A stretch of 64,000 nucleotides of DNA from a bacterium (GCA_037200965.1 JBBCGK010000001.1:64001-128000), one strand, 5' to 3'. Shown: positions 15,358 to 62,371, numbered from the stretch's first letter. Made by a program: numbers and translations. The notes: generated from the letters alone by a model not told the origin.

Positions 15358-18210
<2,853 letters not shown>

Positions 18211-19384: not shown

Positions 19385-20740
19385 GTGAGCATGCTCCCTT
19401 TCTACGACGCGCTTGAAAAGAAAATTAAGAAATCGAAGGAGCAATCGGGCTTCGGGCTCGCTCCGTGGCCTTTGTTCTTCGCGGGGCTTGCAATGCTCTT
19501 CGCGATACTTGTCGTCGCGCCGTCCATCATCCTGCCCGCGCTTTCCTTGGCCTTTTTCCTCCTGCCTTTGTGGCTTCCGCTCGCGCTTGTGGGTACGGCT
19601 TGGGAGATATGGGTCGACCTTAAGCGTTCGGAGTTCATCGCGTCCCAGGAATACATCCTTCTTGAGATCAAACCCCCGCGCATGATCGAGAAGACGCCGC
19701 TTGCCATGGAGGCCGTGCTCTCAGGCCTCCACCTCTCGCCCGGCGAAGGGACCTGGTATAAGAAGTATATTAAGGGCGCGGTGCGGCCATGGTGGTCGTT
19801 CGAAATCGCGTCGCTTGAGGGCCAGGTGCACTTTTTCGTCTGGACGCGCGCGGGATACCGCCGCATCATCGAGACCCAAATATACGCCCAGTATTCGGGT
19901 GCGCAGGTCGTCGAGGTACAGGACTATACGAGGATGATTAATGCCGACCCCGGCGAATGGGAAATATGGGGCTGCGACTTTACCGAAAGCAAGGCCGGTC
20001 CGTACCCGATCCGCACCTACGTCGACTACGGTCTCGACAAGGTGGCAAAGGAACCCGAGCAAGTGGATCCTCTCTCGAACCTCATCGAGTTCATGGGCTC
20101 AATGGGCAAAGGCGAGTATCTTTGGCTCCAGCTGCCGATACGCGTGCATAAGGGAGAAAAGTACAAGAAGCTCAATAAAGAGGGGAAGTCCTATACTTGG
20201 AAAGACGAGGCGAAAGAAGTTGTCGAAGAGCTCCGGAAGAAGACCGTAACGAAGTTCAAGGATCCGGCGACGGGCGTCTCGATGGAGGGATTCCCGAACC
20301 CGACCAAGGGTCAGATGGAGACGATCGCCGCCATCGAACGGAACGTTTCGAAGCTGCCGTTTGACGTCGGTGCCCGCGGGGTTTACATTTCGCGCCCCGA
20401 GAGCTTTTCACCCACGACGATCGCGGGACTCACCGGCATTTTCAAGCAGTTCAGCTCGGAGGAGTGGAACGGCTTCAAGCCCGCACGCTGGATGACGGCT
20501 TTCAACGATTACCCGTGGGAATTTAATGTCGACCACCGCAAGAATAAGACCCGCAAGGCACTTATCGAAGCCTATCGCCGCCGGAGCTTCTTCTATCAGC
20601 CTTTCAAAGGCGAATACATGACCATGAGCACCGAGGAGCTTGCGACCATTTACCATATCCCGTCGGGCGCTACCGAGACGCCGGGCTTCCAGCGCATCCA
20701 GTCCTCGACGTCGGACGCGCCGGTTAACCTTCCGACCTAA
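19385..20740 (+). CDS. hypothetical membrane protein (2 N-terminal TM plus large soluble domain)
   Basis: 451-aa ORF; TATACT -10 at 19373-19378, 6 nt before GTG 19385 (ATG 19391 in frame). Confidence 0.55.
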   Translation: MSMLPFYDALEKKIKKSKEQSGFGLAPWPLFFAGLAMLFAILVVAPSIILPALSLAFFLLPLWLPLALVGTAWEIWVDLKRSEFIASQEYILLEIKPPRMIEKTPLAMEAVLSGLHLSPGEGTWYKKYIKGAVRPWWSFEIASLEGQVHFFVWTRAGYRRIIETQIYAQYSGAQVVEVQDYTRMINADPGEWEIWGCDFTESKAGPYPIRTYVDYGLDKVAKEPEQVDPLSNLIEFMGSMGKGEYLWLQLPIRVHKGEKYKKLNKEGKSYTWKDEAKEVVEELRKKTVTKFKDPATGVSMEGFPNPTKGQMETIAAIERNVSKLPFDVGARGVYISRPESFSPTTIAGLTGIFKQFSSEEWNGFKPARWMTAFNDYPWEFNVDHRKNKTRKALIEAYRRRSFFYQPFKGEYMTMSTEELATIYHIPSGATETPGFQRIQSSTSDAPVNLPT

Positions 20741-31799: not shown

Positions 31800-33056
31800 A
31801 TGCCGCGAACCCTTAACGACATCATCCCGCCCTCGCGCAGGCGCAAGATGGAAGAGGAAGGCGCGCTTCCCCCGGAAGCTTCATACCGGCAGGCTCCGCC
31901 TCCGCAGCAGCCGATGTACGGCGGCCCGTCCCCGCGCCGCTTCCCGTACGCGACCGCGCTCATCGCGCTCGTCATCATCGCCCTTTCGGTGGGTGCACTC
32001 TATCTTTTCTCCGGGGCGAAAGTGACGATCGACCCGTCAAGCGACACGGTCGCCGTCGCCGGAACCTATAGCGCGACCGCTTCGGGAGGGGCGCTGCCGT
32101 TTGAAGTGATATCAGTCCAGAAAATCGGCACGCAGTCGGTGCCGGGAGAAGGAACCGAGACGGTGAATCAGGCGGCGCAAGGTACCGCGACCGTGTTCAA
32201 CACCCAAAAGACCCCGCAACGGCTTATTACCAATACCCGCTTCGAGACTCCGGCCGGGCTTATCTTCCGTATCCATGCGCCGATCGTCGTTCCTGCCGCC
32301 AAGGACGCGAATACGCCGGGAAGCGTAACCGCGACGCTCTATGCCGACGCCGCGGGAGAAAGCTATAACATCGGCGCGACGACTTTCACGCTTCCGGGCC
32401 TTGCGGGCTCTCCGGCGTTCACCGCCGTCACGGCAAAATCATCGGGCCCGATGGCCGGAGGGTTCACGGGTACCCGCCCGAAGGTCGCGGAGGCGACCGC
32501 GAACACCGCGCGGGGAACTCTCAAGACCGCGCTCCAGGGCGATCTTGTAACCGCGCTTAAGGCGGAAATCCCTGCCGGATACGTGCTTCTTCCCGGCGCG
32601 ACGTTCACTTCGTATCAGGACCTTCCGAACGCCGCGGGCGCGAACGGCACGTCGGTTGATGTGAAGGAGCAGGGCACCGCGACCGCCGTCGTATTCCCGT
32701 CCGCGCCGCTTGCCTCCGCGATCGCCGCGCAGGTGCTCCCGGGCTATAACGGCGAGCCGGTGAACATCCCGGACGCGGGGAAGCTCGTGCTCACCCCTTC
32801 GACCGGAGCCCCGGCGGAAGGCGCGACGACCTTCGACTTCACGCTCTCGGGAAATACCACGATCGTCTGGACCGTGGATCCGGCGCGCATCGCCTCGGCG
32901 GTCGCGGGAAAGACCCGTGAAGCCGCGCAAGTGGTGCTTTCGGGCTTCCCCGAAGTGAAGCGGGCGCTTCTGGTGCTCCGGCCGTTCTGGACGGGCGCCT
33001 TCCCGGGAGACCCCAAAGACATCGACGTGGTAGTTAACCCGCCGTCCGGCAGTTGA
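31800..33056 (+). CDS. hypothetical membrane-anchored extracellular protein
   Basis: Pro-rich cytoplasmic N-terminus, single TM (ALIALVIIALSVGALYLF), Thr/Ala-rich ectodomain. Confidence 0.5.
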   Translation: MPRTLNDIIPPSRRRKMEEEGALPPEASYRQAPPPQQPMYGGPSPRRFPYATALIALVIIALSVGALYLFSGAKVTIDPSSDTVAVAGTYSATASGGALPFEVISVQKIGTQSVPGEGTETVNQAAQGTATVFNTQKTPQRLITNTRFETPAGLIFRIHAPIVVPAAKDANTPGSVTATLYADAAGESYNIGATTFTLPGLAGSPAFTAVTAKSSGPMAGGFTGTRPKVAEATANTARGTLKTALQGDLVTALKAEIPAGYVLLPGATFTSYQDLPNAAGANGTSVDVKEQGTATAVVFPSAPLASAIAAQVLPGYNGEPVNIPDAGKLVLTPSTGAPAEGATTFDFTLSGNTTIVWTVDPARIASAVAGKTREAAQVVLSGFPEVKRALLVLRPFWTGAFPGDPKDIDVVVNPPSGS

Positions 33057-38334: not shown

Positions 38335-40221
38335 ATGGCAAAAATCCTCGGCATAGACCTCGGTACCACGAACTCCGCGATGGCGATCATGGAGGGCGGC
38401 AAGCCGCGCATCATCGAGAACGCGGACGGCGCCCGCACGACCCCTTCGGTGGTCGCAATCTCCAAAAGCGGCGAGCGGCTCGTCGGGACGCTCGCCAAGC
38501 GCCAGGCGGTCACGAACCCGAAGAATACCGTCTATGGCATCAAGCGCTTCATGGGCCACCGCTTCCAGGACGAAGCGGTCCGGCGGGATACGGGCATCGT
38601 ACCGTACGAGGTGAAGGCGAGCGCCGATGGCGGCGTCGTGGTGCATCTTGGCGACAAGGACTACCGCCCGGAGGAGATAAGCGCGATGATCCTCGGCAAG
38701 CTCAAGGCGGACGCGGAAGCGAAGCTCGGCGAGAAGATCACGGAGGCCGTGATCACCGTTCCCGCGTACTTCGACGACGCGCAGCGAAACGCGACCAAGG
38801 CGGCGGGCCAGGTCGCGGGGCTCGACGTGAAGCGCATCATCAACGAGCCGACCGCGGCGGCGCTCGCGTACGGTTTCAATAAGAAGAAGGACGAGAAGAT
38901 CGTGGTGTATGACTTCGGCGGCGGCACCTTCGACGTGTCGGTGCTCGAAGTCGGGGACGACGTGATCGAAGTGAAGGCGACCGACGGGGACAGCCACATG
39001 GGCGGCCGTGACATCGACCAGAAGCTCGTGAAGCATATCGCGGCAGAGTTCCAGAAGGAGAGCGGCATCGACGTCACGAAGGATCCCCTTGCCCTCCAGC
39101 GCCTCGATGAGGCTGCGGAAAAGGCGAAGCAGGAGCTTTCCTCTTCCGCGGAGGCGGAAATCAACATTCCGTTCATCACCTCGGGCGCGGACGGGCCGAA
39201 GCATCTCCTTCTCAAGATCACGCGCGCTACCCTGGAGAGTCTCGCGGACGAATACGTTACCCGCTCGATCGATATCACCAAGCGCGCGCTTGAAGCCGCT
39301 GGCCTCAAGCCTTCGGACGTGCAGGAGATCGTGATGGTCGGCGGCCAGACGCGCATGCCGAAAATCCTCGAGGAAGTGAAGAAGCTCTTCGGGAAGGAGC
39401 CGAACCTTTCGGTGAATCCGGATGAAGTAGTCGCTATCGGCGCGGCCATCCAGGCCGGAATCCTCCAGGGCGACGTGAAGGATATTCTTCTGGTGGACGT
39501 CATCCCGCTCTCGCTTTCGATCGAAACCATGGGCGGCGTCGCGACCAAGCTCATCGAGCGCAACACCGCCGTCCCGACGAGCCGTTCGCAGACCTTCTCG
39601 ACCGCCGCAGACAATCAGACTTCGGTCGAGATACACGTGACCCAGGGCGAGCGCGCGATGGCCGCGGACAACAAGTCGCTCGGCAAATTCATGCTCGACG
39701 GCATTCCTCCGGCACCCCGCGGCATGCCGCAGGTCGAAGTATCCTTCGACCTCGACACCAACGGTATTCTCACGGTGAAGGCCAGAGAAAAGACCACGGG
39801 CAAGGAGCAGTCCATCCGCATCGAGGGCTCGACCGGGCTCTCGAAGGAGGACATCGAAAAAATGAAAGCCGACGCGGAAGCGCACGCGGGCGAAGACCAG
39901 AAGAAGAAAGAACTTATCGATGCCCGGAACCTCGGCGAGCAGATGGCCTATACCGCCGAGAAGGCGATCAAGGATGCCGGAGACAAAGCGCCAGCCGAGG
40001 TCGTCACGGAAGTGAACGAGAAAATCGTACTCGTGAAGCAGGCGAATGCCGGAGAGGATCTCCCGGCCATCAAGTCCGCAAGCGAGGCGCTCTCGGCGTC
40101 GCTTTCGAAGATCGGAGAAGCCATGATGAAGGCGCAGGAAGCGCAGACGCCGCCCGCAGGAAATCAAACCCCTCCGCCGGAAGCAGGCGCGACCGACGCG
40201 GAATTCAAGGAGAAGGAATAG
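38335..40221 (+). CDS. dnaK: molecular chaperone DnaK (Hsp70)
   Basis: [35 protein letters not shown] and other Hsp70 signatures; 628 aa. Confidence 0.95.
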
Positions 40222-44047: not shown

Positions 44048-44401
44048 ATGGAAATGAAGCTTCCGCTTCTCCACATCCGACAGGTTGTCGAGTCGGGTCT
44101 CGGAGCGCTCGACGTGCGGGGTAGAGTCAGGCAGGGGAACGCTTTGTTCAAGCAATTGCATACGACATTCCCCTATCCTTTGCTCCTGGTATACATCGAC
44201 CGCATCACCAAGAAAGACCGGCAAGTTCGCGTTTTCGTATCGCACAGGGACGCGTGTCCGCACTATCCGTATACTCGGCTGATCATGGCGGTACGAATGG
44301 TATGCAGGAACGGCCAGTGGATTGCCGGACTTCCGCAAGAAAGCCATATCCGCCAAGGACGCTCCCTGACGAAAGTGCGTTCCGGGCAAAAGACCGCCTG
44401 A
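44048..44401 (+). CDS. hypothetical protein (low confidence)
   Basis: 117-aa ORF with coding-like GC3/GC2 skew; GGGGGG upstream; overlaps the alternative minus-strand ORF 44012..44389. Confidence 0.3.
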   Translation: MEMKLPLLHIRQVVESGLGALDVRGRVRQGNALFKQLHTTFPYPLLLVYIDRITKKDRQVRVFVSHRDACPHYPYTRLIMAVRMVCRNGQWIAGLPQESHIRQGRSLTKVRSGQKTA

Positions 44402-44466
44402 TTCAGGAGCCCCGGCCGCACGCGGCGGCGGGGCTCCGACTCTTTAATACGTGGTATATTCTTGGC

Positions 44467-45717
44467 ATGAATCTCGTAGAAGATCTGAAGGCGCGCGAGC
44501 TCGTCGAGCATCATTCGGCCGAGCCGGAAAAGATATTTTCCGGGAAGCGCACCGTATACCTTGGCGTCGACCCGTCGGCGGACTCGATGCAGGCGGGAAA
44601 TCTCGTCGTGCTTCTTCTCATGAAGCGGCTTGCGGACGCGGGGCATAACCTGGTCCTTCTCGTCGGCGGCGGCACCGGTATGATCGGGGATCCGCGCGAA
44701 AGCGGGGAACGGCAGCTTGCGGATGCGAAGATTGTCGCCCGCAACGCGAAGGCGCTTCAAAAGCAGATGGAGCGGATCATTGGCAGGCGCGTGCGGCTCG
44801 TTAACAACGCCGACTGGCTTCTTAAGGTGAAGCTCGTTGATTTTTTGCGCGATATCGGCAAACATTTCACCGTAAACGAGCTCGTGAAGCGCGATATCAT
44901 CCGCAGGCGCCTTGAAACCCCGGACGAAAGCATCTCCTACACCGAATTCGCGTACTCGCTCCTCCAGGGCCTCGACTATCTGACGCTCTATCAGAAGTAC
45001 GGCGTCGACGTGCAGCTTGGCGGCTCCGATCAGTGGGTCAATATCCTCTCCGGCGTCGAGCTCATCCGCCGGAAGCTCGGCAGGGAAGCCTTCGCCTTTA
45101 CCTGCCCGCTCGTCACCGACTCTTCGGGCAAGAAATTCGGGAAGTCGGAAGGAAATGCGGTCTGGCTCGATCCGGACAAGACTTCGCCGTTCGCCTTCTA
45201 CCAGTTCTGGCTCAACCAGCCGGACGATTCCGTAGAAAAGTACCTTAAATTCTATACGTTCCTTCCGCTATCCGAGATCGATTCGCTCGTGGAGCGCAAC
45301 AGGGCGAATCCGCAGGCCCGCGAAGCGCAGAGGAAGCTTGCGGGCGACGTGACGACGCTCGTCCACGGACGGAAGGCGGCGGAAGAAGCGGAAAAGGTTT
45401 CCGGGGTTCTCTACGGCTCCGGCTCCCTCGCCTCGCTTGCCAAAAGCGAAAGGCTGGCACTCATCGCAGGCGCCCCGGGTATGACGATCGCATTCCGGGC
45501 GCTTGCCGGGACTTCGGTGGCGGACGCGCTCGTTGCAAGCGGCCTCGCGACTTCCAAGAGCGACGCGCGGAGGCTCATCGAAGGGAAGGGAGTTTCGATA
45601 AATGGGATCGCAATTGAAGAGCCTGATGCCGTCCTTGACCCGAATCAGTTCGAAAACGGCCTGGCGCTCCTTCGCCGCGGCAGGCAGCAGGTCGCGGTGC
45701 TTTCGATTGAAAAATAG
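44467..45717 (+). CDS. tyrS: tyrosine--tRNA ligase
   Basis: Class I; KFGKSEGN (KMSKS), C-terminal S4-like domain; TGGTATATT -10 lies 6 nt before the ATG; the listed ORF 44254 is the same frame from an earlier start. Confidence 0.9.
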   Translation: MNLVEDLKARELVEHHSAEPEKIFSGKRTVYLGVDPSADSMQAGNLVVLLLMKRLADAGHNLVLLVGGGTGMIGDPRESGERQLADAKIVARNAKALQKQMERIIGRRVRLVNNADWLLKVKLVDFLRDIGKHFTVNELVKRDIIRRRLETPDESISYTEFAYSLLQGLDYLTLYQKYGVDVQLGGSDQWVNILSGVELIRRKLGREAFAFTCPLVTDSSGKKFGKSEGNAVWLDPDKTSPFAFYQFWLNQPDDSVEKYLKFYTFLPLSEIDSLVERNRANPQAREAQRKLAGDVTTLVHGRKAAEEAEKVSGVLYGSGSLASLAKSERLALIAGAPGMTIAFRALAGTSVADALVASGLATSKSDARRLIEGKGVSINGIAIEEPDAVLDPNQFENGLALLRRGRQQVAVLSIEK

Positions 45718-45745
45718 GCCGTTAGCGGCTATAGTCTAGGGCATT

Positions 45746-45828
45746 GCGTCGGTGGCAGAGTGGTCAATTGCAACAGGCTGTAAACCTGTCGACTTCGGTC
45801 TACGGAGGTTCGAATCCTCCCCGGCGCA
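45746..45828 (+). tRNA. tRNA-Tyr (anticodon GUA), type II with long variable arm; CCA not encoded
   Basis: Acceptor GCGUCGG/CCGGCGC (one G-U), U8, D-arm GCAG...UUGC, anticodon stem ACAGG/CCUGU with loop CUGUAAA, 14-nt variable arm, T-arm GGAGG-UUCGAAU-CCUCC, discriminator A. Confidence 0.9.
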
Positions 45829-45936
45829 CTATATATCGCTCCACGGAATTAGGAAGCGCCATTTTCAGTATCTTATCGGAACATGTCAGCAAGATTCCCG
45901 CTTGTCTCACCCGCAGCAAAAAAGAAGCAAACGATA

Positions 45937-45965
45937 TTGACTTATATACAACTAAATGTTAATAT
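45937..45965 (+). promoter_or_regulatory. near-consensus sigma70 promoter TTGACT-N17-TAATAT (TG extended)
   Basis: ttgact tatatacaactaaatgt taatat; about 50-nt leader with AAGGGAG RBS before ATG 46019. Confidence 0.65.
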
Positions 45966-46018
45966 CGCTTTGAGCAACCGCTCAAGGACTGTACCTCACT
46001 CAAACAAGGGAGTTTCCC

Positions 46019-46495
46019 ATGGCCGATCCGGCCAATACCAACACACCGAATGCCTTGTCCGCCACGACAGGCACCACGGAGCTTCTGGAGCTCACAGCCC
46101 GCATCGTTGCGGCCTATGTGAGCAACAACCCGCTTCCCGTCACGGAGGTGCCTGGAATGATCAAGAGCGTGCATGCGACGCTCGGCGGCCTCGACACGGC
46201 CGACAACGCCGTGAAGACGGACCAGAAGCCAGCCGTTGCGGTGAAGAGCTCCGTGACGCCCGGCTACATCGTCTGCCTCGAGGACGGCAAAAAGCTGAAG
46301 ATGCTCAAACGGTATCTGAAGGCGAACTACAATCTCACGCCCGAAGAATACCGGGCCAAGTGGGGATTGCCCGCGAATTATCCGATGGTGTCGCCCGACT
46401 ACGCGGCGCAACGCTCGGCATTCGCCAAGAAGATCGGTCTCGGGCGAAATCCGCCGAAGACGGTGGTCCCCATGAGAAGAAAGGTCGCGCGCTGA
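46019..46495 (+). CDS. MucR/Ros-family transcriptional regulator-like protein lacking the canonical Cys2His2 zinc ligands
   Basis: ...LTARIVAAYVSNNPLPVTEVPGMIKSVHATL...KPAVAVKSSVTPGYIVCLEDGKKLKMLKRYLKANYNLTPEEYRAKWGLPANYPMVSPDYAAQRSAFAKKIGLG is collinear with Agrobacterium Ros; second Cys and both His ligands are replaced (D, Y, N). Confidence 0.7.
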   Translation: MADPANTNTPNALSATTGTTELLELTARIVAAYVSNNPLPVTEVPGMIKSVHATLGGLDTADNAVKTDQKPAVAVKSSVTPGYIVCLEDGKKLKMLKRYLKANYNLTPEEYRAKWGLPANYPMVSPDYAAQRSAFAKKIGLGRNPPKTVVPMRRKVAR

Positions 46496-46520
46496 TTTTT
46501 CGGCGGCGCGGCTGTGTCCG

Positions 46521-46550
46521 GCGGCGGTCCTTCGGGGCCGCCGCTTTTTC
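46521..46550 (+). terminator. rho-independent terminator
   Basis: gcggcgg-tccttcgggg-ccgccgc followed by tttttct. Confidence 0.65.
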
Positions 46551-46847
46551 TATACCTGGATACTTCATCCGCTTCGTGCTATAATGCTTCCCGGTTGGGT
46601 TCCGGCTGCAGGGATGCTGCGGCGCTGTGCGGGAGGCGTTGATGTGCGTACTTGACCCTGGCTCTGCTGCGCTCGCAGAAGAGTGGAGGAAGAGACTCGA
46701 CGACTGGTGGAAGAACCGCCGGAAAATGCCGAGCGAACTGCTCCTGAAACTGCTTTCGATCGGACGCCGCGAAGCGGCGGGTGGGCAATGACAAGGGGCC
46801 GCGCAGAATGCGCAGGCCTCGTTCGTTTTTCTGGTATACTCGAGGCC

Positions 46848-47792
46848 ATGGCAGGCAAACAAACGCTTCTTACCGGACTCCAGCCTTCGGGAGACCTCCA
46901 TATCGGCAACTATTTCGGGGCGCTCAAGCCCTTCATCGACCTCTACGGAAACTACGAGAGTTATCTCATGGTCGTCGATTATCACGCGCTCACCTCGCTT
47001 CGCGATCCGGAAGCGCTCCGGAAAAATATCAAGGGGGTCGTGCGCGATTATATCGCGGCGGGCGTCGATCCCGAGAAAGCGACTGTCTTCAAACAGTCGG
47101 ATGTGCCTGCGCATACCGAGCTTGCGTGGGTATTCGACTGCCTGGTATCCGTACCGTTTCTGATGCAGGGACATGCGTATAAGGATAAGGTCGCGAAGGG
47201 GCTCGAGCCGAATGCGGGATTGTTCACCTATCCCATGCTCATGGCCGCGGACATTCTTCTCTATGACACGGACGTGGTGCCGGTGGGCGAAGACCAGCGC
47301 CAGCATATCGAATACGCCCGTGAGGCGGCGAACAAGTTCAATAACACGTTTGCGCCACTCTTTAAGGAACCGAAAGAAAGAATCCTCAAGGCCCAAGGCA
47401 TCGTCCCGGGAACCGACGGGGCAAAAATGAGCAAGAGCTATAAGAATACTATCCCGCTCTTTGGCACGCGCGACGAGATCGTGAAGGCCGTGATGGGGAT
47501 CGTGACGGACTCCTCCGGCGGACGCCCGGAGAACGTGTACGTCATACACAAGCTTTTCCGCAGCGAAAGCGACCTTGATGCGCTCTATGCAGAGAAGGCA
47601 GGTAAATATAAGGACCTCAAGGAAGCCCTTATCGAAGACATCGACGCATTCATCGCCCCCATGCGCGAAAAGCGCGCTTCCATCTCGGACGAAGACGTCG
47701 CCCGCGTACTTGCGCGGGGCGGGGAGACAGCCCGGGCGGTTTCCGAAGCCAAGATGAAAGAAGTGCGCAGAGCGGTCGGCGTTAGTGTATAA
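46848..47792 (+). CDS. trpS: tryptophan--tRNA ligase
   Basis: TGLQPSGDLHIGNYFGA (HIGH-type), KMSKSYKN (KMSKS); TGGTATACT -10 lies 7 nt before the ATG; the listed ORF 46683 is the same frame from an earlier start. Confidence 0.9.
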   Translation: MAGKQTLLTGLQPSGDLHIGNYFGALKPFIDLYGNYESYLMVVDYHALTSLRDPEALRKNIKGVVRDYIAAGVDPEKATVFKQSDVPAHTELAWVFDCLVSVPFLMQGHAYKDKVAKGLEPNAGLFTYPMLMAADILLYDTDVVPVGEDQRQHIEYAREAANKFNNTFAPLFKEPKERILKAQGIVPGTDGAKMSKSYKNTIPLFGTRDEIVKAVMGIVTDSSGGRPENVYVIHKLFRSESDLDALYAEKAGKYKDLKEALIEDIDAFIAPMREKRASISDEDVARVLARGGETARAVSEAKMKEVRRAVGVSV

Positions 47793-60045: not shown

Positions 60046-60666
60046 ATTCCTAAGATCGTGCGACTTCCACAGCGCAAGGCACGCATAGCTGCGGTGCGGG
60101 CTCCATGACTCTGCGATTTTTAGAAGCTTCTCGCGCGGAACGCCCTTCTTGAGTTTATAAATCCGCTCCATCGAGCGTACGAGGCCGAGATCGCCGACGG
60201 AGAAGACATCGGAGCGCCCGAGCGCGAAGATGAGGAACATCTCCGCCGTCCATGCGCCGATACCCCAAACCGAGCTTAAGGAGGCGATGGCCTCGGCTTC
60301 CGGGAGACGCTTGAGCGCGAGGAGGTCGAGAGACTTGGTTTCGACCGCCTCCGCAAGCGACTTGAGCGTCTTCGCCTTCGCTCCTGAAAGTCCCGCGGCG
60401 CGAAGGGACGGGAGGGAAGCGGCGAGGATCGCCGCGGGAGTAACGCTCCCGCCGCAGGCCGCTACGACGCGTTGCCATATCGCGCGGGCCGCGCCTGTCG
60501 CAAGCTGCTGGCCCACGACCGAGCGAGAGAGCCGCTCAAAGAGTCCTTGCCTAGTCCGTACCTGCCCGAGCTCCGGCGGAAGCTCCTTTCGGACGGCCCG
60601 GGCGGCCGCATGGAGCTTCGGGTCCGCCCGCCTGAAGTGCATAAGCGCCTTGTCCCGTCCGGTCAT
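60040..60666 (-). CDS. HhH-GPD superfamily DNA glycosylase (AlkA-like DNA-3-methyladenine glycosylase II)
   Basis: ...LSSVWGIGAWTAEMFLIFALGRSDVFSVGDLGL... helix-hairpin-helix/Gly-Pro-Asp signature with catalytic Asp. Confidence 0.8.
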   Translation of the reverse strand: MTGRDKALMHFRRADPKLHAAARAVRKELPPELGQVRTRQGLFERLSRSVVGQQLATGAARAIWQRVVAACGGSVTPAAILAASLPSLRAAGLSGAKAKTLKSLAEAVETKSLDLLALKRLPEAEAIASLSSVWGIGAWTAEMFLIFALGRSDVFSVGDLGLVRSMERIYKLKKGVPREKLLKIAESWSPHRSYACLALWKSHDLRNK

Positions 60667-60686
60667 TACCCCCTATACTACTACCA

Positions 60687-60875
60687 ATGCTGAAGCTCAT
60701 ATTCTGGATCGTCGTCGGCGTCCTGGCGCTCTCTTTCTTCGGTATTTCCCTTCGCGCCATCATCACCTCGCCGATCGGCCAGGACAACCTCGGCTTCCTA
60801 TGGATGCTCGTCGTCCAGGGCTGGGATGCGATCGTGCAGTTCTTCACCTCGCTCCTTCCGCACCAGTTCGTCTAA
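60687..60875 (+). CDS. small membrane protein
   Basis: 62 aa, two TM; TATACT -10 at 60674-60679, 7 nt before the ATG. Confidence 0.45.
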   Translation: MLKLIFWIVVGVLALSFFGISLRAIITSPIGQDNLGFLWMLVVQGWDAIVQFFTSLLPHQFV

Positions 60876-60886
60876 CGTCCCCGCCG

Positions 60887-62371
60887 ATGCAGAGAGGCTT
60901 CTCGACCCTGGAGGCCGTGCTCGCGATGGCAATATTCGTTTCCGCCATCGCCGCGGTTATGCTTACCGAGTCCGGAAACCAGTCGCTTCTTGCGGACGGC
61001 GCGCTTGCCGGCAGCGCAAGAGAAGATGCCCGGGCGCTCCTTGCCGAAGAAGCGGCTCGCGCACTCAAAGATTTCAATCTCGTGAATCCCATACGGAACG
61101 CTTCTGCGAGCGCATCCGCGCGCGTGTCGCTTCTGCCCGATTATCTGACCAAGCTCGTGACGGCCGCGGCAACGTGGAAGGATGAATTGGGCCGGACGCA
61201 CACCACCGAGCTTTCGACTCTTCTCACTAATTTCGAACACGCGACCGGCGGCGATACCTGCAGTTCCGCGCTCGAAGGCGACTGGAGCTCGCCGACAGCC
61301 AAAAGCTACGCGCTTTCTCCCGGAGATCTCCTTCCTGGCAATGAAATCGGCGCGGCGGTGAGCGGCCTCGATGCATACCACGACACGCTCTATGTCACAG
61401 CTGACGAAGGAAGCGGCGCCACGCTCTTCCTCTTCGATACGTCAAGCGAAGGCAAGCCCCGCTTTATCGCAAGCGTCGATAACGCGCGGGGAACCGATGG
61501 CGGGCTCGCGGGCGTCCTTGCCGCCGGAGATTATGCGTACCTCGCGGATAGCCACAGCCGCGATGCGGACTGCATGCCGGGTACCGACTGCGCGCAGCTT
61601 CAGGTCGCGGACGTGAAAGACCCGAAACGGCCGGAGATTGTCGCAAGCTATCTCATACCGACGACGACGCCCTCGTTCGTGAAAGGGTCGGGAGGACAGG
61701 CGGCGGGGAAAGCGCTCGCGTATCAGGACGGGTTTCTGTATCTCGGGCTTTCGAAGACCGCGAACGGGCCGGAATTCAATGTGATTGACGTGCGGGATCC
61801 CGGGTCCCCAAAATGGCTTGGCGGATACGGCATCGGCCGGAGCATAAACGCGATCGTTATTGACAGAGGCCATGCATACCTCTCGACCGACGATAACAAG
61901 AGCGGCGGGAGGGCGGTCGCGGTACTCGATATTAGCGACCCGAAGCATCCGTATCAGATCGCGAGCTGGAGCGCGCCCGGAGCCGGATTCGCAAACGGCA
62001 TACGGAAAATCGGCGATACCCTCTATCTGGGCCGCTCGTACGCAAGCGGCGCGCAGGAAGAATTCCATGAACTCGATGCATCCCGTCCGGAAGAAGGTCT
62101 TCCGATACTTGCAGGTGCCGACATCGGAACTGCCGCACATCACGCAAGCGTGCGATCGCTTATCATCCGCGACACGCTCGCTTTTCTTCTCACGAACGAT
62201 GATATCGAACTTTGGGACATCGGCGACGCGGAACATATCGGCCCCGCCGCCGCGCCGATACCGCTTCCGGAAGGAAGCCAGGGAATCGCGCTTGACTGTG
62301 AAGGCAACAGGCTTTATGCCGCTTCAAACGCGGGCGATACCGGCTACGTCACGATACTTTCCGCCCGCTAG
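60887..62371 (+). CDS. type IV pilin-like protein with prepilin N-terminal methylation motif fused to a large LVIVD/beta-propeller repeat domain
   Basis: MQR|GFSTLEAVLAMAIFVSAIAAV (G at -1, E at +5); then about 450 aa with repeated ...AYLAD..., ...LYLGLS..., ...AYLSTDD..., ...LYLGRS..., ...LYAASN... blocks (LVIVD-repeat-like). Confidence 0.65.
   Translation: MQRGFSTLEAVLAMAIFVSAIAAVMLTESGNQSLLADGALAGSAREDARALLAEEAARALKDFNLVNPIRNASASASARVSLLPDYLTKLVTAAATWKDELGRTHTTELSTLLTNFEHATGGDTCSSALEGDWSSPTAKSYALSPGDLLPGNEIGAAVSGLDAYHDTLYVTADEGSGATLFLFDTSSEGKPRFIASVDNARGTDGGLAGVLAAGDYAYLADSHSRDADCMPGTDCAQLQVADVKDPKRPEIVASYLIPTTTPSFVKGSGGQAAGKALAYQDGFLYLGLSKTANGPEFNVIDVRDPGSPKWLGGYGIGRSINAIVIDRGHAYLSTDDNKSGGRAVAVLDISDPKHPYQIASWSAPGAGFANGIRKIGDTLYLGRSYASGAQEEFHELDASRPEEGLPILAGADIGTAAHHASVRSLIIRDTLAFLLTNDDIELWDIGDAEHIGPAAAPIPLPEGSQGIALDCEGNRLYAASNAGDTGYVTILSAR

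Follow-up and report, generated by a model that had tools for sequence, protein, structure and literature searches.

An intact mucR gene lies between tRNA-Tyr and trpS in a Paceibacteria (CPR) genome of about 1 Mb, represented here by a 64-kb stretch of DNA (the window), and its horizontal acquisition from Rhizomicrobium/Micropepsaceae-type Alphaproteobacteria is strongly supported. The product is, with some reserve, probably a functional nucleoid-associated regulator of the MucR family, sourced from the glyA-linked mucR of those Alphaproteobacteria; it would be an oligomerising, H-NS-like protein, probably autoregulated, whose fold does without zinc. The closest relative found (L084; DnaK 92%, TrpS 88%) has a MucR of 152 aa, with the pattern C-D-Y-x-Y at the positions of the zinc ligands, in the same tRNA-Tyr-trpS place.

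In Alphaproteobacteria (and Deltaproteobacteria) MucR is seen as the equivalent of H-NS, and a phyletic review of it gives only sporadic transfers elsewhere, with CPR unmentioned (PMC7710501). Of 636 literature matches for MucR with Patescibacteria/CPR, the 15 ranked highest make no mention of MucR. What stands out is that mucR is present in Paceibacteria by horizontal transfer; a sister lineage may have captured its copy independently. General understanding of the Ros/MucR family is unchanged by the window gene; what an intact and apparently expressed mucR in a genome of about 1 Mb would indicate is that even episymbionts with ultra-reduced genomes are able to take on a silencer that structures the nucleoid, and the clear donor signal is a testable hint at the bacteria on which these Paceibacteria live.

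Table 1. The mucR locus and its flanks, in coordinates of the window
Feature	Position	Strand	Remarks
tyrS (tyrosyl-tRNA synthetase), native upstream neighbour	44317..45717	+	466 aa; Pfam tRNA-synt_1b/SYY_C-terminal in the identical contigs L081/L082
tRNA-Tyr (GTA), 5' edge of the slot	45746..45829	+	ARAGORN; Rfam tRNA 60 bits
Slot between tRNA-Tyr and trpS	45830..46847		About 1 kb in the window; holds mucR
Sigma70-like promoter TTGACT-N17-TAATAT, TG extended -10	45937..45965	+	Promoter scan 9/12; predicted function
5'-UTR stem-loop CUUUGAGC-AACC-GCUCAAGG	45968..45987	+	Directly after the -10; RNA fold
Shine-Dalgarno AAGGGAG	46006..46012	+	6 nt 5' of the ATG; sequence inspection
mucR CDS	46019..46495	+	ATG start, 158 aa; ROS_MUCR protein of full length; same sequence as NCBI MEJ0053226.1
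N-terminal oligomerisation domain	46061..46183	+	Helices aa 15-36 and 41-55 (AF2 model); hydrophobic triad V44/M47/I48
C-terminal DNA-binding domain	46220..46450	+	aa 68-144; homology to Ros87
Former zinc site	46274..46330	+	C86 46274-76, D89 46283-85, Y99 46313-15, N103 and Y104 46325-30
Intrinsic terminator	46520..46552	+	11-bp GC-rich stem, then T-run; terminator scan and RNA fold
trpS, native downstream neighbour, 3' edge of the slot	46848..47792	+	Extended -10 TGGTATACT, its end 7 nt 5' of the ATG

The gene product

The protein is a genuine member of the MucR/Ros family and is correctly annotated by NCBI, where its title is 'MucR family transcriptional regulator [bacterium]'. Pfam ROS_MUCR (PF05443) gives a full-profile match at E=4.8e-48 (162.7 bits, with a gathering cut-off of 25.4), residues 22-142 aligning to profile positions 2-123 of 123, and the C-terminal half matches Ros87 (PDB 2jsp) at E=4.9e-24 (phmmer); the latter match is collinear, which upholds the collinearity with Ros/MucR that had been claimed in a sequence-only reading of this DNA. 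A scan against NCBIfam matched zero families. Compared with the canonical Cys2His2 proteins, A. tumefaciens Ros (2jsp) and Sinorhizobium MucR1, the DNA-binding domain is about 51% identical over 77 residues, and the order of motifs and the basic regions are the same.

The N-terminal triad lines up with L36/L39/I40 of Brucella MucR (PMC6250670); in Brucella MucR and in Ml5 this triad drives the formation of decamers or dodecamers. All three residues are hydrophobic, as they are in relatives, about 200 of which have L/V/I, M/V/L and I in these columns. A clade alignment of 53 sequences shows no variation at the basic residues K91, K94, K97, R98, K114, R132, K137 and K138 of the C-terminal domain. 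The window protein conforms to this alignment at each of its 54 invariant columns, the DNA-contact basic residues included, and its only deviations at columns conserved to at least 90% are D120N, A125S and N127D. An AF2 model has a mean pLDDT of 58.8, with about 80 in core residues 90-120, and at this low confidence shows the two helices of the N-terminal domain as well as those of the DNA-binding domain; it is too uncertain for a description of the former zinc site. Foldseek with that model against the PDB returned 2jsp as the best and only credible match (E=9e-3, TM 0.34); the model's confidence being low and the superposition on 2jsp poor, the beta-beta-beta-alpha-alpha fold of the DNA-binding domain is supported at the level of sequence.

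Zinc-ligand positions

Alignment of Ros CLECGGSFKSLKRHLTTHH with the window's CLEDGKKLKMLKRYLKANY is gap-free, and Ros C79/C82/H92/H96/H97 fall on C86/D89/Y99/N103/Y104 (MAFFT, about 200 relatives). Three of the four zinc ligands of Ros are thereby replaced, C82D, H92Y and H97Y, with H96N in addition, just as had been read from the sequence when the second Cys and the two His were given as D and Y/N. C86 is the only Cys of the entire protein and H52, which belongs to the N-terminal domain, its only His, and with a single Cys and no His in the DNA-binding domain, retention of the ligands at shifted positions is excluded; neither a Cys2His2 nor a Cys-Asp-His2 structural zinc set is present.

The same reading went astray in taking a zinc-less homolog to be unusual. 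All of the approximately 200 closest homologues (the top 120 database clusters and 81 genome loci) have Cys-Asp at ligands 1-2 and, where Ros has His97, either Tyr or Phe, and 146 of the 202 aligned closest relatives have Tyr also at the position of Ros His92 and so the same C-D-Y-x-Y as the window protein. A wider survey searched 1.84 billion cluster representatives and, at E<=1e-3, yielded a family of 7,232 clusters. In the best 150 mutually diverse representatives of these, four plausible zinc ligands are kept in 28, three in 74, two (Cys and Asp only, as in the window protein) in 45, or about 30%, and one in 3; of the family clusters that lie closest to the window protein, about one in three has a Cys-Asp-Tyr-x-Tyr/Phe domain. 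As C-D-Y-x-Y is the norm of the donor clade, the absent ligands are not what sets the window protein apart: they are a clade-wide and common family feature, and only the host is unusual.

Known members show how variable this site is. The coordinating residues of Ros/MucR proteins are poorly conserved (PMC12948726), with Asp usually replacing the second Cys (PMC12948726, PMC5745721). Brucella abortus MucR and M. loti Ml1-Ml3, which are Cys-Asp-His2, share with the window protein the Asp at ligand 2 and the N-terminal helices with their hydrophobic triad; the window protein is without their two His ligands. M. loti Ml4 and Ml5 need no zinc either for folding or for DNA binding (PMC9779718, PMC5693944), and zinc-free Ml5, in which Ser replaces the first Cys, assembles into rings of 12 subunits and is able to bridge AT-rich DNA (PMC11662661). 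With Ml4 and Ml5 the window protein has in common an incomplete ligand set and, presumably, a metal-independent fold. Unlike Ml5 it keeps Cys86 and has Tyr at both His positions; this would be a different route to zinc loss and, as far as found, one that is apparently uncharacterised biochemically in the literature.

The window protein is quite likely to be zinc-free. Zinc is bound by S. meliloti MucR2 (C-D-H-K-Y), for which the Tyr that corresponds to Y104 has been proposed as fourth ligand (PMC13297338), and because of that precedent 'zinc-less' is for the window protein something that we infer. The same precedent lends some weight to a reading that is unlikely though still worth consideration, in which the domain is not zinc-free at all and a new coordination variant, a non-canonical metal sphere, is made up of Cys86, Asp89, Tyr104 and either Tyr99 or water; C86 and D89 are invariant across all of the roughly 200 close relatives, which exceeds what a pure core residue might need. 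MucR2, however, has at the third position a His that is a demonstrated ligand and that is Tyr in the window protein, a Cys-Asp-Tyr-Tyr structural zinc site is without precedent in the literature found, and the fold of Ml4 and Ml5 manages without metal. MucR2 and MucR3 (Cys-Asp-His with Lys/Tyr) share with the window protein the Tyr at the Ros His97 position and, unlike it, keep the third-position His and bind zinc (PMC13297338); they also oligomerise poorly and do not bridge DNA. At one oligomerisation position they have Thr, and there the residue of the window protein is hydrophobic. If the domain is zinc-free, as preferred here, its fold would be held by the hydrophobic core and by hydrogen bonds involving Y99, Y104, D89 and C86, most likely not by structural zinc, in parallel with Ml4 and Ml5. 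The metal content of Cys-Asp-Tyr-x-Tyr/Phe members is an apparent gap in the prokaryotic zinc finger literature, and one that is easily filled.

Transcription unit

With a promoter, a ribosome binding site and a terminator of its own, mucR is a self-contained transcription unit (Table 1). The TTGACT-N17-TAATAT element with its TG, which the sequence-only reading had singled out, is present and well placed; that it is the best promoter in the window does not hold, as eight other sites reach 10/12 by simple hexamer criteria, two of them (45707 and 46557) less than 1 kb from mucR. The promoter region is the most AT-rich stretch of the neighbourhood, with a local GC of 0.47-0.50 against 0.59 for the whole window. 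The classical ribosome binding site that had been noted is there too. A counterpart of the 5'-UTR hairpin, with UUGAGCA as an arm, is given by RNA folding for L084.

Rfam matched only tRNA-Tyr, both in the whole window at gathering scores and in 45600-46900 at E<=1, apart from two sub-threshold sRNA matches that overlie the mucR terminator. Right after that terminator, at 46557-46791 (+), there is a TGGATA-N17-TATAAT with TG (10/12), and this promoter-like site is followed by a 54-aa ORF, 46627-46791, without evident L084 counterpart or Rfam match.

Probable function

The behaviour of Brucella MucR and Ml1-Ml3 leads one to expect, by analogy, an H-NS-like mode of action for the window protein. 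In sequence it has what an H-NS-like xenogeneic silencer, a role raised in the sequence-only reading, would require, namely both domains. Its N-terminal helices would assemble it into ring-like oligomers, and these would be expected to bind AT-rich DNA with T-A steps by the minor groove and to repress by bridging or occlusion. A likely target is its own AT-rich promoter: the region upstream of mucR is AT-rich and full of T-A steps, which makes autoregulation plausible, and Brucella mucR, in which it has been shown, is a precedent (PMC5881533).

A GC scan of the 64-kb window revealed no pronounced AT-rich island on which a silencer might act; the lowest 300-nt GC is 0.47, and the region upstream of mucR is one such minimum. 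In a 1-Mb genome with little foreign DNA the protein may instead be a local regulator. Such a dedicated transcription factor, with targets such as the mucR promoter and trpS/aspS next to it or genes of the cell envelope, and not acting as a genome-wide H-NS-like silencer, would suit a small, GC-rich genome and the scarcity of AT-rich islands in the window. It is nonetheless rather improbable, since the oligomerisation domain and its triad are kept and the known full-length members of the same architecture form higher-order oligomers.

Far less probable again is that mucR is a decaying recent passenger, functionless in its CPR host. Substitutions at three strongly conserved positions (D120N, A125S and N127D), divergent tails at both termini and the absence of mucR from most relatives could be read that way, but the ORF is intact with every clade-invariant residue kept, promoter, ribosome binding site and terminator are present, samples from different runs agree fully in sequence, and a second lineage, that of L084, retains a MucR at the same site.

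Host genome and reality of the linkage

The window belongs to a Paceibacteria genome and not to that of an alphaproteobacterium, as follows from its DnaK matches, the length of the contigs and its gene content. The labelled best matches of DnaK (38335-40218), at 81-85% identity, are to Candidatus Paceibacterota, Parcubacteria and Patescibacteria group, with one exception labelled Bacillota, and the closest matches overall reach 92%. The longest contig that bears these window proteins is 960 kb, and the genes that fit a CPR genome include a short AlaRS, an AspRS (NCBI name aspartate--tRNA(Asn) ligase) and an F-type ATPase.

An identical mucR in an identical tyrS-tRNA-mucR-trpS context is present in two independent assemblies, L081 and L082, of samples from different runs, and the identical protein is also recorded on a 928-nt contig and a 960-kb contig (flanks not read). 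With the same gene amid the same CPR genes in L081 and L082, acquisition from Alphaproteobacteria is well supported. Mis-binning does occur, as the alphaproteobacterial context of one contig labelled Patescibacteria (L044, below) makes plain, but that the window's mucR owes its place to chimeric assembly, or to the mis-binning of a fragment from an alphaproteobacterium, can be dismissed almost entirely, given CPR-type genes on both flanks inside the contig, the same flanks in L081 and L082, the further two contigs with the identical protein, a GC3 that fits that of the neighbours (0.80 and 0.70-0.82) and the same arrangement independently in L084. Composition as a test of foreignness was uninformative in the window because the GC3 of donor and recipient are alike.

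Source of the gene

The best homologues, at 73-81% identity by BLASTP, are from Rhizomicrobium, Micropepsaceae or Alphaproteobacteria wherever they are labelled, and their chromosomal context is conserved as glyA-nrdR-ribD-ribE // mucR // DUF6898-aminotransferase. By this conserved context the gene is, in those bacteria, their resident orthologous MucR and not a mobile paralog. Horizontal acquisition, which had been suggested from the sequence, thus gains both a CPR host and nearest relatives that are chromosomal and alphaproteobacterial.

The glyA-linked MucRs (for example P0003 in GCA_037975565.1, P0082 and L001-L010) share with the window protein the CLEDGKKLKMLKRYL..xY motif and the two-domain architecture, and P0003 is 87% identical to it in the N-terminal domain and equally so in the DNA-binding domain. 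They differ from the window copy in that the latter is in Paceibacteria and in the tRNA-Tyr/trpS slot instead of glyA//mucR//DUF6898, has an N-terminal tail about 10 aa longer, ends in PPKTVVPMRRKVAR where they have ATKSRRRG, and carries the substitutions D120N, A125S and N127D. Within GCA_037975565.1, two contigs of 4.0 Mb and 454 kb (L089 and L090) have identical MucRs in near-identical 16-kb contexts, which suggests that this MAG contains two strains that are closely related or that its assembly is duplicated.

No mobile vector for mucR was identified among IMG/VR contigs, GenBank phages and plasmids. Over most of its length the protein is no more than 59-60% identical to those of IMG/VR viral contigs, with two partial matches of about 70 residues at 66-74%; GenBank phage MucRs are at most 55% identical, and plasmid MucRs at most 64%, the 513 records with MucR genes all being further from the window protein than are the chromosomal Micropepsaceae copies.

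The only other match labelled Patescibacteria, L044 (DATGZW010000068.1, 'Patescibacteria group bacterium'), has the ligand pattern C-D-H-T-Y and was rejected as a CPR MucR. It is flanked by glyA, nrdR, ribD, ribE and rpiB, and as this is the context of alphaproteobacterial genomes the contig is probably mis-binned.

The slot between tRNA-Tyr and trpS

The gene had been placed just after tyrS and tRNA-Tyr, and both are indeed directly upstream. In related genomes the slot holds a peptidase S8 gene (L086), an HTH-EPSP-synthase gene with murB (L087), about 1.7 kb of other sequence (L093), about 430 nt (L094), or is empty, with 119 nt (L091). A metagenome scan with TrpS found mucR near trpS in none of 80 related loci, and a homologue search with the L084 MucR found no further CPR-type alleles. 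Given these differing contents and the absence of mucR from the 80 TrpS loci, the slot is a variable one, with mucR in only a narrow lineage.

An integrative element targeted to the tRNA was considered and rejected, there being neither an integrase between tRNA-Tyr and trpS nor att-like direct repeats of the 3' end of tRNA-Tyr. A LAGLIDADG-type, homing-endonuclease-like ORF with a GC of 0.42 lies between tyrS and tRNA-Tyr in L084 (about 16973-17720) and L087 (15470-16276) and is absent in the window.

At the other edge, an extended -10 (TGGTATACT or TGGTATAAT) is present about 7 nt before the trpS start in the window (46830-46850), in L084 (18765-18782) and in L094 (3978-3998); it is degenerate in L091 (3975-3996). 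Its position in the window, L084 and L094 suggests that trpS mRNA is leaderless and that this is conserved.

One acquisition or two

The window and L084 MucRs are 62% identical to each other, and 78% in the DNA-binding domain. Each is nearer to an alphaproteobacterial protein: the window MucR is 74% identical to P0003 (87% in the DNA-binding domain) and that of L084 is 78% identical to P0082 (92%). The two CPR copies were joined in 0 of 100 bootstraps of neighbour-joining trees, and the quartet-informative sites favour separate affinities by 4:0:0, these being four conservative sites. At the nucleotide level the coding sequences match alphaproteobacterial genes with 274 and 303 bits, against 78 bits between the CPR copies. 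The mucR of L084 has a GC3 of 0.80 against 0.55-0.67 for neighbouring L084 genes. Non-coding similarity between the window and L084 is significant only in the 36 nt before trpS; weak collinear matches are TTATATAC, TTGAGCA and the analogous 5'-UTR hairpin.

From these comparisons two acquisitions, or an allele replacement, would appear to be somewhat favoured, with neighbour-joining and four sites not being decisive. A fuller version of this is that a core chromosomal mucR entered the same slot separately in two sister Paceibacteria lineages, by capture or by re-capture through allele replacement, with different Rhizomicrobium/Micropepsaceae-type Alphaproteobacteria as the sources; this is a speculative proposal with the likelihood against it. 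Were it true, it would imply recurrent DNA flow from one host group and point to Micropepsaceae as the hosts of these episymbionts. It would also suggest that selection favours an H-NS-like silencer in an ultra-small CPR genome, for instance in taming incoming host DNA.

Other features of the window

The leucyl-tRNA synthetase gene at 15358-18210 (+) encodes a protein of 950 aa with a NUDIX insert (PF00293, residues 405-511, E=1.5e-9) after the editing domain, and such a NUDIX fusion is unusual for LeuRS. Three long ORFs on the same strand, 60230-62371, 19385-20740 and 31800-33056 (713, 451 and 418 aa), are without Pfam match at E<=1e-5. The last of these adjoins alaS, where ORFs without Pfam matches are likewise present in L084, L086 and L087.
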